Shown here piece after piece: positions 39,000 through 44,524 of a stretch of 45,902 nucleotides of DNA; within the stretch, counting starts at the first letter, position 1; every line of letters begins with the position of its first letter. The notes beneath the pieces were generated by a model that had not been told where the DNA came from, ran no database searches, and saw nothing but the letters and a program-made list of their open reading frames with translations. Source of the DNA: a virus (taxonomy: Duplodnaviria; Caudoviricetes); IMG/VR virus record IMGVR_UViG_3300016474_000132, positions 1-45,902 of that record. One strand, given 5' to 3'. A program made the translations under genes and the position numbers.

Positions 39000-41063
39000 T
39001 TACGCGCCAGCTCCGGTGATCTGGTTGCTGACGGTATTGCTGCCCTTGCCGCCCGAGGGGGCGCCGCCGGGCGCCGAGACCTCAGCTTCTGGGTTGGGAG
39101 TCTGCTGGGCCATGACCGCCGCCTGTTGTTGCTGCGCAGCAGCCTGCATGCCGGCCTGGATGTCGATCTGCTCGTCGGTGGGGACGATGTTGTCCACCGG
39201 CATCGCGAGGCCCTTGGCGACTTCCCGCAGGATCGCTGCGCGACCCTTGGCACCGACGATCTGGGCGTCCAGCGGGTTGGCTGTCGCCTGCAGGAACTCG
39301 ACCCGGCGCACGTTGAGCTGCTCGCGGTTGGCCAGGGTGACAGCGCCACGCGGGATGACCTCGCAGTCGCCCTTGATGGTCATGTCGTCCACGTACTGCA
39401 TGTTCCAGTTGTACTGCGCGGTGACCAGCGGGCCGATGACGTCGAAGTCGATGTGCATCACGGTCTGGCGGATACCCTTGCCAGCGGAGCCCATCAGCAT
39501 GGACAGGCCCGACGCGGTGCGACCCGCGCCGCCCACGGCGCCGTCGCCGTAGACGTACGCCGGGATACCCGACTGCTCATCGGCCATGCGGGCAAACTGC
39601 TGGTACACGGCGAGCAGCGGGCCGCTGCGGTCGTCGGGCTGGTTGAACCGTACTGCCGGCTGGCCGGAGCCCATCGGGTCGGCCACGGTCTGCCACACCT
39701 TCCACGGGAACACCTGGGTGATCTTCTCGCCCTCGGCGAGGCGGTCCACCGAGATCTCGACCTGCGGACCCGAGGCGATGCCCATGTTGTTGGCCAGCGC
39801 CCGCGCGGCGGCGTTGCACATAGCCTGCACGTCCTCGATCAGCTCGGGGATGGACACACCCCACAGCGCGCCCGGGCGCTTGACGCACGAAGTCATTCGG
39901 TACGGCTTGTCGCCCAGCGGGTCGTAGTTGAGCGTGGCCTTGATGACCCACTTGCCCACCACCCACACGCAGGCGTCGTACATGCGCGAGACGTCCGGCA
40001 CCTCTTCGGCGTCGAGGCCGAAGTCGATCAGATCCTGGCCGCTGACGCGACCCCAGAACTCCAGCGCGTCGTACTTGTTGCTGTCCGAGCGCCAGATGTT
40101 GTACTTGTTCTCGAGTTCCGCCTTCGTGTGCTCGGCGCTCCACAGCCACTCGGACGATGCCCCCTCGGCCAGCACCGCCTTGATGGCGCCGTCGTCGTAC
40201 CCCGGCACACCGATGAGGTCGGACAGGTCAGCCTCCGACAGGCGATGGTGCTCGATGCAGTAGCCCTCTTCCAGACGGGTCAGGCCCGGCTCCGGGTAGA
40301 ACCTGAACGGATCCACACGCTGGTAGGTGGGGATGATGCGGTCCTCAGTCTGCGGCACGAACGCGCCGGTCTCGTCCTGAACCCACTCGAGCTGGCGACG
40401 GCGGCGCACCACCGGCCCCTTGACGATCGCTGCCGGGTAGGTCGCGAGGTCGCTGATGAACGCGCTGAAGTTCTCCACCATGCCGCCCTCGGCAAACTGG
40501 TCTTGGATGCGCTTTTTCATCCGCTCGGCGCGGTCAGTGGCCTCGGCCAGCAGCGCCTGCTTCATCTCGTCGCCGAGCTGTTCCTGCATCTGCTCCATGA
40601 CCATGGGGTCCAGCGGGATGCCGCTCTGGATCGCTCCGATGACCTTCTGCCCCATGGCGGCGGTGATGCGCTCTTCGTAGTCTGGCGGCATCTCGGGGAC
40701 GTGCGTGGGCTTCAGGTCGAACGGCACCATACCCTCATCGAGCAGGATGTCGCGCAGCCACGACTCAGCGCCACGGCATTTCGTCTCCGTGACCATCATG
40801 AAGATCTCGGAGCCACCGGTCTCGCGGATCTGCGCGAGCTTGTCGGCCTCGTACTCACCTCGGCGCTGTCGCAGCGCCTTGAGCATGATGCGCTCGATCG
40901 GCTGCTTGGCATCGCGTGCCGCCTCCCAGCACTTGCGCACATGCGAGGCGAGCCCGGTGAGCACCGGGATCTGTTGGCGAAGCGCAGCGTCACGAGCCTC
41001 CTGCGCGGCGGTATCCTCTGCGGTTAGCTGCGCGTTGGACTTGATGACGACGAGACCTGCCAT
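39000..41063 (-). CDS. portal protein
   Basis: 687 aa directly after TerL; VDPFRFYPEP, LWGVSIPE, RTASGLSMLM. Confidence 0.9.
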   Translation of the reverse strand: MAGLVVIKSNAQLTAEDTAAQEARDAALRQQIPVLTGLASHVRKCWEAARDAKQPIERIMLKALRQRRGEYEADKLAQIRETGGSEIFMMVTETKCRGAESWLRDILLDEGMVPFDLKPTHVPEMPPDYEERITAAMGQKVIGAIQSGIPLDPMVMEQMQEQLGDEMKQALLAEATDRAERMKKRIQDQFAEGGMVENFSAFISDLATYPAAIVKGPVVRRRRQLEWVQDETGAFVPQTEDRIIPTYQRVDPFRFYPEPGLTRLEEGYCIEHHRLSEADLSDLIGVPGYDDGAIKAVLAEGASSEWLWSAEHTKAELENKYNIWRSDSNKYDALEFWGRVSGQDLIDFGLDAEEVPDVSRMYDACVWVVGKWVIKATLNYDPLGDKPYRMTSCVKRPGALWGVSIPELIEDVQAMCNAAARALANNMGIASGPQVEISVDRLAEGEKITQVFPWKVWQTVADPMGSGQPAVRFNQPDDRSGPLLAVYQQFARMADEQSGIPAYVYGDGAVGGAGRTASGLSMLMGSAGKGIRQTVMHIDFDVIGPLVTAQYNWNMQYVDDMTIKGDCEVIPRGAVTLANREQLNVRRVEFLQATANPLDAQIVGAKGRAAILREVAKGLAMPVDNIVPTDEQIDIQAGMQAAAQQQQAAVMAQQTPNPEAEVSAPGGAPSGGKGSNTVSNQITGAGA

Positions 41064-41119
41064 GGCGTAGTGTGGGTGTGGTTATCCTGCCCGGATTCTA
41101 CACACCCTGTACGGAATTG

Positions 41120-43522
41120 CTAGGTCCACGCCCCCATAGGCACACGTTCAATGGTGTGCGCTCGGCGATTGGCGAACTTTCCACCCTGTTGAGCGTCAGC
41201 GTGCAAGCAAAGATATTGCAAGGCATCGCAGTTGCTCACCAACACGCCGTTGGCGTAGTACACCCCAGCGTCATCCACGGCCATACCGTAAACGTCTTGT
41301 CTCGGAGATTGCCGCTTTCCAACAATCCTTAGAGCAGGTCTTGACCTTCTTGTACTTGTTGATGAGGAACTCTGTCCCACAGACGGTGCAAGTTCGGAGT
41401 TCGTCGTCGACACCGGATGCGATACGAGCAGCAGTCTGGCAGGAAGGAGAACAGAATCCGCGCTTTCGCTTTTCGGCGTACCCGGAATACTGCTTACCGC
41501 AGTGCGTGCAAACAAGGTCAATAGGAGTCTGGTTCGCAGCGATTCGCTTGCCGTGCTCCACATGCCACGCACGTCCTTCGTCAGACGCGTGCCAAGCCTT
41601 CGCAGCTTCTCGGGCAGCCGCGAGCCACGGTTTCCAGCAATCGGGGTCTTTTTCGAGCCGCTCCCGCATGTGGTGCTTGTGGTGCGCAGATCTGCACATG
41701 AGTTCAAGGTTGCCGATGCAGTTGTTACTTCGGTCTCCATCTTTGTGGTGTACGTCGTGGCGGTCTGGTATTGGGCCGTTATGAAACTCCCAGACATAGC
41801 GGTGCATGTAGCAGGTTCCATAGCGATCGTAGTCGGCTTTGTAGTACCCACTTGGCTTGTGGTAGAACTTTCGGCCATCGAACTCTTGTACCGGATATTT
41901 CTTACGCATGATACGCCTTCAGGGTTGTTGATACCCATCAGTATATCAGTGTATTGGATGTCGTCAATAGCGACGAAGCCGCGCTGCGTAGCGACTGGAT
42001 GGTCCGGGGTCGCGATCATCGTAGTCCCGTCTGAGAGTACGTACTCGTAGACCACGGCGTTTTCCTGCGTCTTCGTGGCGCCAAGCACACGGCGAGGGCC
42101 GATGGGAGTAGATACCATATCGCCAGCGCGGACAGTCTCGATCGGCACGGAGCCGGACGGCGTCGCAATCAGCGTACCAGCGGCGAAGCAAACATGCGAG
42201 TGCTTGTTCTTTTCCGGCGTGTCCTCGTACTCGCCGTTCGTTTTCAGCTTGTACCGGTAACCCCCGCGCATGGCCTGGATGAGAATTTTGCACGATGGAT
42301 CCAGTAAAAACCCAGCACCAGCATCAACCTGCCGGTTGAGAAACTGCTCCACCGCCGTGATCCGCGCCACGATGCTGTTGGTGTAGGCCGGCACCGCCTT
42401 GAACCCCTCCGAACGCAACACGTCGTACACCGTCTTCTCGTCCGTCTGCGCCCGCGCCGTGCCAGCCGGGTCGCCAATCACCAGCACCGGAGCCCCTGGG
42501 AAGTCCTCCGCGAGGCAGGGCTTGAGCACCGTGCGCAGGAACCGCAGCAGGCCCATGCCGTCCGACGACATCGCCCGGTAGATCAGCAGGCGGCCCATGG
42601 CGTCGAGCTGCCCGAGGGTCGCGCTGGGGTTCAGGCCGAAGTCCATGCCGATGAGCAGCGGCCGCATCCCGTTGAGGATCGGATTCAGCGGGTTCTTGGC
42701 GACGTGAAACGTGGAGTCGAACGACCGGAACACCGGCTGGCCGGCAAGTGATTTGCCGAACTTGGCGTGGATGTAAACGTCGATGTAGTCCTGGCTCTTT
42801 CCTGCAGCCAAGTTCTCGTAGTAGTTACTCGGCAGCAAGTGAACCCAGTCCGCCTCCGGCGAAAGTCCAGATGGCTGTATGGTGACATGTGTGTTATCCG
42901 GCGGGTTGCTGAGAAACTCCTCGAAGTATGTGCCCTGATCCGGGGGGTTACTCATACCCCAAACGTGGATATTAGACTTGCCCTGATCCGTGACGCAGCC
43001 TTGGATTGGGTTTCCCTTGTCATCCGTGCCCCATTCCGGTCGGTGAGGGACCATGGAGCCATCAGGATAACGCCCGAGACGACCCTGAAGCGCTTCAAAA
43101 ATGTCCTTGTTCAGCTCCCGAAATTCCTCCACCACGGCAAATGAGGCCTGCAGCGAGAGCAGACGCCGCACGTCGTTGGAATCATCAAGGCCTCGGAACA
43201 GGATCTCGCACTCTACATCGTCCAGTTTCAGCACGTATTTGTACTCGGACTTCAAGAAGTAGCCCGCTTGTCCGTCCGGGAACCACTTCAGGAAGTCAGG
43301 GATCGACGTGTCCCGCAACTGCTCTCGCGTCTGACGAACCCAGATGCAGCGAGACCGCCTGATACCATCCTTGCACGGCGCCATCTTCTTGGCGTGGTAC
43401 AAAATCTTGACAATACCTGCTGTTGTTTTTGTGGAACCAACTGGTCCACAAACCAGTGAGATGAACTTCTCAGACAGAAAAAACGGTACCAATGACGGCA
43501 CCGGAGTGAACATGGTGCTCAT
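41120..43522 (-). CDS. terL: terminase large subunit containing an intein (800-aa precursor, 480 aa after splicing)
   Basis: Walker A GPVGSTKT, Walker B AVVEEFRE, SNPP, nuclease IGMDFGLNP, IGDPAG; KNKHSHV/CDALQY restored on intein removal. Confidence 0.93.
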   Translation of the reverse strand: MSTMFTPVPSLVPFFLSEKFISLVCGPVGSTKTTAGIVKILYHAKKMAPCKDGIRRSRCIWVRQTREQLRDTSIPDFLKWFPDGQAGYFLKSEYKYVLKLDDVECEILFRGLDDSNDVRRLLSLQASFAVVEEFRELNKDIFEALQGRLGRYPDGSMVPHRPEWGTDDKGNPIQGCVTDQGKSNIHVWGMSNPPDQGTYFEEFLSNPPDNTHVTIQPSGLSPEADWVHLLPSNYYENLAAGKSQDYIDVYIHAKFGKSLAGQPVFRSFDSTFHVAKNPLNPILNGMRPLLIGMDFGLNPSATLGQLDAMGRLLIYRAMSSDGMGLLRFLRTVLKPCLAEDFPGAPVLVIGDPAGTARAQTDEKTVYDVLRSEGFKAVPAYTNSIVARITAVEQFLNRQVDAGAGFLLDPSCKILIQAMRGGYRYKLKTNGEYEDTPEKNKHSHVCFAAGTLIATPSGSVPIETVRAGDMVSTPIGPRRVLGATKTQENAVVYEYVLSDGTTMIATPDHPVATQRGFVAIDDIQYTDILMGINNPEGVSCVRNIRYKSSMAESSTTSQVGTTKPTTIAMEPATCTAMSGSFITAQYQTATTYTTKMETEVTTASATLNSCADLRTTSTTCGSGSKKTPIAGNRGSRLPEKLRRLGTRLTKDVRGMWSTASESLRTRLLLTLFARTAVSSIPGTPKSESADSVLLPARLLLVSHPVSTTNSELAPSVGQSSSSTSTRRSRPALRIVGKRQSPRQDVYGMAVDDAGVYYANGVLVSNCDALQYLCLHADAQQGGKFANRRAHTIERVPMGAWT
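41231..42190 (-). mobile_element. intein (320 aa; Cys1 to Ser-Asn, +1 Cys) in the TerL nuclease domain
   Basis: Block A CFAAGTLIATPSG..PIETVRAGDMV, block B IATPDHPV, blocks F/G DVYGMAVDDAGVYYANGVLVSN|C. Confidence 0.9.
41271..41909 (-). CDS. HNH endonuclease with C-terminal Zn-finger repeats, nested in the -1 frame inside the intein
   Basis: YMHRYVWEFHNGPIP..DVHHKDGDRSNNCIGNLELM..HHKHH; CTHCGK, FCSPSC, CTVCG, TCSKDC; GAAGG Shine-Dalgarno-like sequence before the ATG. Confidence 0.88.
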   Translation of the reverse strand: MRKKYPVQEFDGRKFYHKPSGYYKADYDRYGTCYMHRYVWEFHNGPIPDRHDVHHKDGDRSNNCIGNLELMCRSAHHKHHMRERLEKDPDCWKPWLAAAREAAKAWHASDEGRAWHVEHGKRIAANQTPIDLVCTHCGKQYSGYAEKRKRGFCSPSCQTAARIASGVDDELRTCTVCGTEFLINKYKKVKTCSKDCWKAAISETRRLRYGRG

Positions 43523-44085
43523 TGGGTGAAGTCCTCATCAGCGTCAGCGTCGGGGTAGTCCGGGTCGATGTCGTCATCCAGGGCGATGGGTGTCTTTGGC
43601 GGGCGGCTCGGCAGCATGATGGTGGGTGCTTCCTCGATGACCTCGGCACGGTGGCTCTCGATCTGCTGCGGCACCCCGCCGGGGATGTTGATCGTGATGC
43701 TGTAGCCGTTGTTGCCCTGCGACGCGTCAATGGCCTTCTTCGGCTTCAAGTCAGCCCACTCGACGAGGTTCTCGATGATCTTGGCCCGCACGGCTGCCGG
43801 CGTCTCCTCGTCGCGCGCCATGTGATACGCCACCGGCAGAAGGTCTTCCGCCAGCACCTTGCTCTTGGCCGAGAACGAGAAGCCGTTCTCCTTCAGGTCG
43901 GCTGTGTAGGCCTCGACGTAGCGCTTGAACTGCGGGTTGTCGGCCAGCACGATGAACTCCTGCTCGGTGACGCCCTCGGCGGTCAGCACCTCGCCGATGG
44001 GTCTGTTGGCCCCCACCCGGTTGCGCGCCACGGACAGCGCAAGACTGCGCAGGAACTGGTCGGCACGGACGGCACTGGTACTCAT
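43519..44085 (-). CDS. terS: putative terminase small subunit
   Basis: 188 aa directly upstream of TerL with ATGA overlap; RBS AGGAG; helical, ends YSITINI plus an acidic tail. Confidence 0.7.
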   Translation of the reverse strand: MSTSAVRADQFLRSLALSVARNRVGANRPIGEVLTAEGVTEQEFIVLADNPQFKRYVEAYTADLKENGFSFSAKSKVLAEDLLPVAYHMARDEETPAAVRAKIIENLVEWADLKPKKAIDASQGNNGYSITINIPGGVPQQIESHRAEVIEEAPTIMLPSRPPKTPIALDDDIDPDYPDADADEDFTQ

Positions 44086-44312
44086 GGCTGGGACTCCTGG
44101 GAAGGTGGGTTTCGCTTGGCCGCCAGGATCTCTGCACGCAGGCACCCGCACGAGCGCTTGCGCCCCGACGTCAGGTTGCTCCAGTACTCCGAGATCTTGC
44201 TGCCGCACTCGCACAGGCACACGTACTTGCGCGGAGTCGGAGGGTCCGCGCGCCCTTTGACTGTCAGCCGGCCGAACACGCGACCGACTCGTGGGGGGTA
44301 TTTGGTGGTCAT
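44082..44312 (-). CDS. stand-alone Cys-rich domain of the type found at the N-terminus of HNH/AP2 endonucleases
   Basis: GRVFGRLTV...YVCLCECG......LTSGRKRSCGC; no nuclease domain follows. Confidence 0.65.
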   Translation of the reverse strand: MTTKYPPRVGRVFGRLTVKGRADPPTPRKYVCLCECGSKISEYWSNLTSGRKRSCGCLRAEILAAKRNPPSQESQP

Positions 44313-44524
44313 GTGGGGAGTATATAGGGCGGGCTGGGCCATTGGAATGGGGTATGTACTCCATACAAGACAAGCAACCGGGGCGTTTTTGGCTGGGGTA
44401 TATACTTTCAGATGCGAAAAATGGGGGGCGCTTTACGGTGGGGAGATCAGAAAGGGGGTGGGGGCCCCCCTATGGACGGGTGGGTGGGGGTACCTACACT
44501 ACTATCACCGCCGGCCGGGCTGCC

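Follow-up and report, generated by a model that had tools for sequence, protein, structure and literature searches.

A predicted two-gene mobile element in a phage terminase gene: an intein with an HNH endonuclease gene nested out of frame

Introduction

How can a homing endonuclease gene reside within the gene of the large terminase subunit (terL) when the intein interrupting this gene carries no endonuclease in its own reading frame? This question is raised by IMG/VR record IMGVR_UViG_3300016474_000132, a 45.9-kb phage contig (Duplodnaviria; Caudoviricetes) with DNA polymerase, helicase, primase-like and portal-like genes, the whole analysed length of which (45,902 nt) is referred to here as the window. 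An earlier note on this DNA, made from its letters alone, had proposed that splicing and homing are performed by two polypeptides made from overlapping frames, that the in-frame linker of the intein is a passenger removed by splicing, and that such an architecture was undescribed. The comparative data presented here speak for the first two points; the third was wrong. The locus is, with high probability, a two-gene mobile element in terL, composed of a cis-splicing intein and a separately made I-HmuI-like HNH homing nuclease encoded in the -1 frame. It belongs to a new family, real and widespread, of an already described kind of layout.

Results

All features listed below lie on the minus strand of the window. 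The terL open reading frame (ORF; 41120..43522) encodes a precursor of 800 amino acids (aa), which predicted splicing would reduce to 480 aa; the intein-less allele L013 has 480 codons. The N-extein (aa 1-444; 42191..43522), ending in KNKHSHV, matches the PHROG terminase large subunit family with E=5.6e-21. It is followed by a class 1 intein of 320 aa (aa 445-764; 41231..42190) and by a C-extein of 36 aa (41120..41230), which begins with CDALQY and provides the Cys at position +1. The end motifs of the intein are CFAAGT, TPDH (block B, 41999-42010) and ANGVLVSN/C (the slash marks the junction; block F/G starts from 41293), and its key residues are C445, N764 and C765; the penultimate residue is Ser. 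Excision of the intein in silico yields KNKHSHV/CDALQY.

The intein matches Pfam Hint_2 (E=4.7e-9), and an AF2 model, built from an 8-row alignment and without the last Asn, shows a Hint fold that is confident over approximately residues 1-90 and 283-319; a Foldseek search with this model returned solved inteins (E=8.8e-7, rmsd 1.7). The insertion is absent from close alleles and combines Cys1, TxxH, the terminal Asn, the +1 Cys and the Hint fold, as a class 1 intein does, so the assignment of TerL residues 445-764 in the earlier note holds. Penultimate His and Asp in block F4 belong to the intein consensus, being common but not universal, and are accessory, not defining, for the class. Within the family described below the SN/C ending is common, with penultimate Ser in 26 of the 84 parsed relatives, a few of them mis-parsed. 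An endonuclease in the intein's own frame, the mark of a canonical full intein, is missing here: residues 98-282 have pLDDT <50 in the AF2 model and are read as a disordered linker, in agreement with the roughly 200 aa of featureless in-frame sequence noticed earlier. We take the Asp in CDALQY to be a catalytic acidic residue of the terminase nuclease. Since the C-extein carries this residue, splicing should be needed, and the position of the intein just before the conserved TerL Asp makes protein splicing likely.

The nuclease is found in the -1 (=+2) frame of the intein, where an ORF of 212 aa (41271..41909) matches PF13392 (HNH_3; E=2.8e-16) and PHROG 15471 (E=1.9e-37). It comprises an HNH_3 core, a conserved WHxSxEGxxWH helix pair and two predicted four-Cys zinc modules, and its 3' end overlaps intein block F by 23 nt, in line with the HNH plus zinc-finger ORF reaching into block F that the earlier note had described. 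The catalytic and metal-binding residues of HNH_3 are present (H54, H55, D57, N63, N67, H76 and H80), all 14 residues invariant in the family are kept, and the AF2 model reaches a pLDDT of 95. The best solved relative is I-HmuI (1U3E), a weak match by profile (E=7e-4 with a 70-sequence alignment); a PDB profile search with a 10-sequence alignment of the HNH gave no match. I-HmuI was also the top row in Foldseek (E=8.5e-3), where nothing was returned at E<=0.001. In the Pfam search HNH_3 was the only domain reported for the window's HNH, and an Endonuclease VII-like domain was not found in it.

The offset between the two frames is genuine. The sequence was compared with other assembled contigs, not with raw reads: contig X2 from an independent study spans 41075-42133 with 28 substitutions and 0 gaps, and contig X3 spans 41420-41949 with 3 substitutions and 0 gaps. 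A third contig, X1, is identical to the window and is possibly its own source.

Viral, metagenome and genome collections were scanned together with cultured phages, and at least 204 loci scored >100 with the HNH profile; all locus counts given here are lower bounds. Among these, 138 are contiguous inteins, 36 have a stopped N-half, 26 lack an upstream N-half and 4 are cut by a contig edge. The frame offset is 2 in 138/138 contiguous inteins, and the HNH is in frame in none of the 204 loci listed. Among 1402 longer-protein candidates no in-frame or fused HNH form was found at E<=1e-15, which is weak evidence. After removal of eight partial, edge-cut or frame-broken loci (L095, L132, L136, L166, L191, L194, L208 and L254), clustering at 90% left 145 representatives: 96 contiguous, 26 split and 23 other. 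Terminase family matches were obtained for 64 of the 66 exteins tested out of the 96. The cultured phages TJE1, LS06-2018-MD07, Highwayman and phiCDHM19 carry the element in a gene annotated simply as TerL.

Throughout the family the junctions fall at a few adjacent positions around the C-terminal D-x-x-D-A-x-x-Y motif. In the 26 split representatives, exemplified by Lactobacillus phage CL2, the HNH lies between separate N- and C-halves of the intein, the C-half overlaps the 3' end of the nuclease gene, and in 22/26 its frame relative to the HNH is that of the contiguous form. Among the 23 other loci, 17 have the HNH directly after the end of a gene bearing the D-x-x-D-A-x-x-Y motif (as read by eye); in phages SN1 and PAE1 it stands free after an annotated terL. 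The remaining loci comprise two antisense beside terL, two antisense inside split inteins, one likely group I intron and one located elsewhere. The antisense pair within split inteins (L192 and L199) interrupts TerL at the same motif with the HNH family member on the opposite strand. The likely group I intron is that of Exiguobacterium phage EauM-23 (L264:2760-3665). It contains the HNH and interrupts terL 2 nt away from the position of the intein, its exon ends rejoin an H-S-I-D-A-T-R-Y motif, and the locus is annotated in the record as a truncated TerL plus a separate HNH. This intron call is based on R/S motifs and on the exon ends; Rfam gave no match in the window, L256, L260, L262 or L264. 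In a FastTree phylogeny of 144 HNH rows (L200 was left out by the program), the contiguous, split and other states are clustered but interleaved, with 21 changes of state, 6 of them between contiguous and split.

Several members deserve separate mention. In three split forms (L213:1758-2760, L188:1227-2110 and L257:2700-3949) the halves are still in the frame of the contiguous form, which may mark a route from dual-coding to split inteins; in L213 a single stop separates the N-half from the HNH and could instead be a sequence error. L208 has a frameshift in the N-half. Two loci (L008:2086-2934 and L010:2594-3421) have inteins of 365 aa with a nested HNH that bears an extra, duplicated-looking N-terminal domain and is without the second zinc module. 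In split inteins L102, L193 and L203 the N-half is separated from the HNH by an additional 400-750 bases, which may hold a further passenger gene, and in L254 (3560-3830) a transposase-like frame directly follows a frame-broken copy of the element.

Both frames are free of stops over the HNH, as the earlier note had stated, and the openness of the intein frame exceeds chance: synonymous resampling predicts 4.4 stops in this frame over the HNH, and the probability of none is ~0.007. The intein-side frame holds 6.1 stops per 200 codons in the split loci and 6.6 in the other control loci, compared with ~20 in the third frame, and is stop-free in 1/26 split and 0/23 other control loci; by synonymous resampling 2.8 of 96 loci would be open by chance. 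Contiguous loci are open by definition, so that the evidence lies in their number set against these control rates. The demand for an open linker frame has a cost visible in the HNH protein: Met followed by I, M, T, N or K occurs 0 times out of 173 in the contiguous loci and 43 times out of 147 in the controls. The low stop load of the intein-side frame (~6 vs ~20 per 200 codons) is also the likely cause of the fixed offset of 2.

In each of the 14 close pairs compared, conservation is higher in the HNH frame than in the linker frame, substitutions at HNH codon positions 1/2/3 number 548/469/1069, and the residues of the HNH core and first zinc module are kept in 87-94 of the 96 representatives. 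The better conservation and the excess at third positions indicate that the HNH is selected for its sequence and the linker only for openness. The earlier argument from leucine codons is weaker than had been thought. It is correct that none of the eight HNH Leu codons is CTG, but just two of the eight would create a stop as CTG, and a family-wide depletion of CTG is not seen (14% of Leu codons in contiguous inteins vs 17% in controls).

Candidate signals for separate expression of the HNH precede its start. A predicted sigma70-type promoter with an extended -10 TG, TTGACG-16-TGaTATACT (41940..41967), lies inside the coding DNA of the intein N-half, 30 nt before the HNH ATG. It is the single such site in 41000-43600; as 1.0 is expected there by chance, its position is what matters. 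The window promoter has p ~0.01 against synonymous resampling; among relatives the test is significant in 26/88 compared with 2/88 in a control window (the first 40 intein codons), and in 73/88 the region beside the HNH outscores the intein start. This stricter test supersedes a previous one (43/94) that used extein codon usage. High scores are likewise seen where no N-half lies upstream (10/23 at >=10).

The HNH frame is closed upstream by an in-frame TGA (41919-41921) four codons before the ATG, overlapped by a Shine-Dalgarno (SD)-like GAAGG (41916-41920) placed 6 nt before the start. The start signals pointed out in the earlier note are thus all there, although the SD, at -3.8 kcal/mol, is weak. 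In 95 of the 96 representatives a start codon, ATG in 76, is found near the first conserved HNH residue. An SD of <=-4 kcal/mol precedes 62/95 of these starts and 41/164 internal ATGs, a comparison that favours the test set because the best-scoring one among several candidate starts was used. The nuclease genes of phage T4 have a hairpin over the start; no significant hairpin was detected over the window's HNH start (z=0.78).

The nearest intein-less allele, L013, encodes a TerL with 98% aa identity to that of the window. The exteins are joined directly in L013 and in 32 further loci, and contig joints were also seen in X2 and X8; a scan for the junction pattern turned up only L013's contig again. 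The +1 residue in the 33 intein-less loci is Ala (21), Ser (5), His (4), Gln (2) or Met (1), never Cys, and around the junction 9/14 bases differ between the window and L013, compared with 104/1443 overall. The raised divergence at the junction, together with the lack of +1 Cys in empty loci, is what would be expected if a few flanking bases had been copied along with the element. An N-extein tree was built from 32 rows: 12 intein-bearing loci and the 20 that remained of the 33 intein-less ones once near-copies and partial sequences had been removed. Intein presence requires 8 changes on it, at least 6 of them forced, compared with 10 when labels are shuffled, and the window is the single carrier in a 12-row TerL clade, the other 11 rows being intein-less. 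By these sequence comparisons the element is patchily distributed among close exteins. A different insertion was noticed in a close TerL relative (L035:3402-3979), which is empty at the intein site and has ~890 nt inserted near the N-terminus.

Two further observations concern the vicinity of terL, again on the minus strand. A terminator-like hairpin with a T run (43484-43503) lies just within the terL start; with 4 terminator-like sites found and 2.5 expected, it is possibly due to chance. An 86-aa ORF (44082-44342), which overlaps the start of the gene preceding terL, resembles the N-terminal part of HNH family phrog_374 (E=3e-12) without the nuclease core and looks like the remnant of a second homing endonuclease gene.

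Discussion

The two frames and their conservation, the selection on the HNH frame and the intein-less sister alleles are direct observations, and the activities of splicing, expression and cleavage are predictions well supported by this comparative evidence. In the mechanism we propose, the Hint halves would fold around the disordered linker of ~190 aa and ligate HSHV to CDALQY, giving a TerL of 480 aa. The sigma70-type promoter in the N-half coding DNA would drive a short-leader mRNA for the HNH. The nuclease would then nick or cut intein-less terL close to where the C-terminal D-x-x-D motif is encoded, and repair would copy the 960-bp insert with a few flanking bases, bringing in the +1 Cys codon. 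Such an element could be the product of an invasion, in which a free-standing HNH gene that was already targeting the 3' end of terL moved into a mini-intein located there. The predicted internal promoter would strengthen the idea, contained in the earlier note, that nuclease expression is uncoupled from that of the terminase.

Several points weigh against the two-gene reading. The window's intein has Ser as its penultimate residue and Gly at F4. The window's SD is weak, 33/95 relatives are weaker than -4 kcal/mol, and the SD comparison is tilted as stated above. The promoter is significant in just 26/88 relatives, with a matrix entered by hand. Only the control rates provide independent evidence from the stop counts. 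Both the N-extein and the HNH trees are unrooted, so that gain and loss are not told apart on them. Pairwise identities do not show that intein and HNH travel together as a unit: rho for intein and HNH is 0.30, compared with 0.36 and 0.22 with the extein.

Among the alternatives, the one that survives best, though it appears doubtful, is that the element still splices but has lost homing here, the intact HNH being a recent relic. The existence of split and frame-broken relatives such as L213 and L208 would be in keeping with decay of this kind, but all the invariant residues are preserved in the window's HNH, and its intein-less neighbours are what would be expected for a recent gain.

The HNH is nearly always in or beside terL, and it is conceivable, if improbable, that it is a domesticated terminase helper of the HK97 gp74 type that the intein merely shelters. 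The same reading was raised for the brucellaphage HNH in PMC4422536, and PMC10448857, a paper on collaborative homing, states that the two readings are not exclusive. Against such a role, close TerL alleles are without the HNH at this place (L013 with 98% identity, and X8), although L013 is a 10-kb contig and its phage may carry a copy elsewhere. The HNH is also absent from this place in the 33 intein-less loci, but their contigs are partial genomes. The distribution is patchy, the best solved relative is a homing enzyme, I-HmuI, and the HNH also occurs in split inteins and in a likely intron at the same motif.

Production of the HNH from the terL mRNA by -1 ribosomal frameshifting, as a fusion to the N-extein and intein N-half, would account for the offset of -1 in every contiguous locus and for the weak SD of the window; we nevertheless consider it very unlikely. 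The HNH frame of the window is closed by a stop four codons upstream of the start, most relatives have one no more than a few tens of codons away, the start codon is nearly always present and mostly ATG, and no X XXY YYZ run was seen by eye between the TGA and the ATG. The stop load of the available frames offers a simpler cause of the offset, and split and free-standing relatives share the same start region.

Finally, the notion that compensating indels in a metagenomic assembly, here compared with contigs only, have shifted an in-frame HNH out of frame is refuted by the gap-free contig from an independent study and by the offset common to 138 loci, including four cultured phages.

The two-gene element thus retained as the preferred reading has published counterparts. 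In all brucellaphages an HNH gene is encoded out of frame within a TerL intein (PMC4422536). The intein of brucellaphages Tb and Pr (NC_019446.1) resembles that of the window in being contiguous, with a nested same-strand HNH bearing zinc-binding Cys motifs. It is inserted in the ATPase region (GNRAD/C...HN/CVIIDD), whereas the window's intein interrupts the C-terminal nuclease motif. Its offset is +1 and not +2, and its HNH is of the PF01844 type at the C-terminus, compared with PF13392 at the N-terminus in the window; 11 of 28 motif residues align (E=0.002). The different site, frame and HNH type suggest that the two elements likely arose independently.

In actinobacteriophages, inteins have been described whose frame 3 contains an endonuclease VII-like gene (10.1101/2025.01.02.630785); they share with the window's element the strand, the frame (frame 3 = +2), the featureless in-frame linker and the proposed origin from a free-standing nuclease. 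The nuclease type differs, the HNH inteins of that survey are in frame, and the second ORF there typically avoids the splicing domain, in contrast to the overlap with block F seen here. The main text of that survey makes no mention of a promoter or of TJE1, which its supplementary table might list. In cyanobacteria, a dnaX intein contains an overlapping LAGLIDADG ORF in the +2 frame that is preceded by a putative SD; its nuclease frame is under purifying selection, whereas the intein frame is relaxed (10.64898/2026.09.14.751524). The host gene is cellular and a free-standing ancestor was not found there, while free-standing relatives are plentiful in the window's family. In fractured genes with split inteins (PMC2677866) a free-standing nuclease lies between the halves, as in our 26 split representatives; the nucleases there are GIY-YIG and Vsr-like, and the window intein is contiguous. 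The methylase gene of phage ShiLan (PMC11855218) likewise hides a same-strand HNH with the host frame kept open. It has no splicing domain, the host gene is non-essential, and no SD was seen. With I-HmuI (PDB 1U3E) the likeness is the best profile and fold match of the nuclease core, weak and confined to the N-half; the C-half of the window's HNH consists of the two zinc modules.

The window family differs from the published out-of-frame inteins in nuclease, site or frame. Neither this HNH intein family nor an intein-internal promoter was found in the literature searched, which covered subscription papers only in small part.

Conclusions

We lean, with modest confidence, towards a broader reading, in which a single HNH family that targets the codons for the catalytic Asp at the 3' end of terL has time and again been captured in all the shelters known: a free-standing position downstream of the gene, a group I intron, a split intein (sense and antisense) and a contiguous dual-coding intein, the coding DNA of which was rewritten to include a promoter for the HNH. 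If true, no larger family of out-of-frame inteins would be known, and its members would form a living series showing how inteins gain nucleases and how split inteins arise, with cultured phages at hand for each main state.

The family alone comprises at least 96 distinct loci, including cultured phages recorded simply as having a 'terminase large subunit'. Published work describes out-of-frame intein nucleases as rare and liable to be filed as decayed or mini-inteins. What the present family adds to the published cases are relatives at the same motif that are free-standing, split or likely intron-borne, a predicted promoter that would account for the expression of the hidden gene, and the near-identical empty allele L013 as a ready substrate. 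These allow direct tests of the model in which splicing comes first and the nuclease invades later, and of how contiguous and split inteins are linked.

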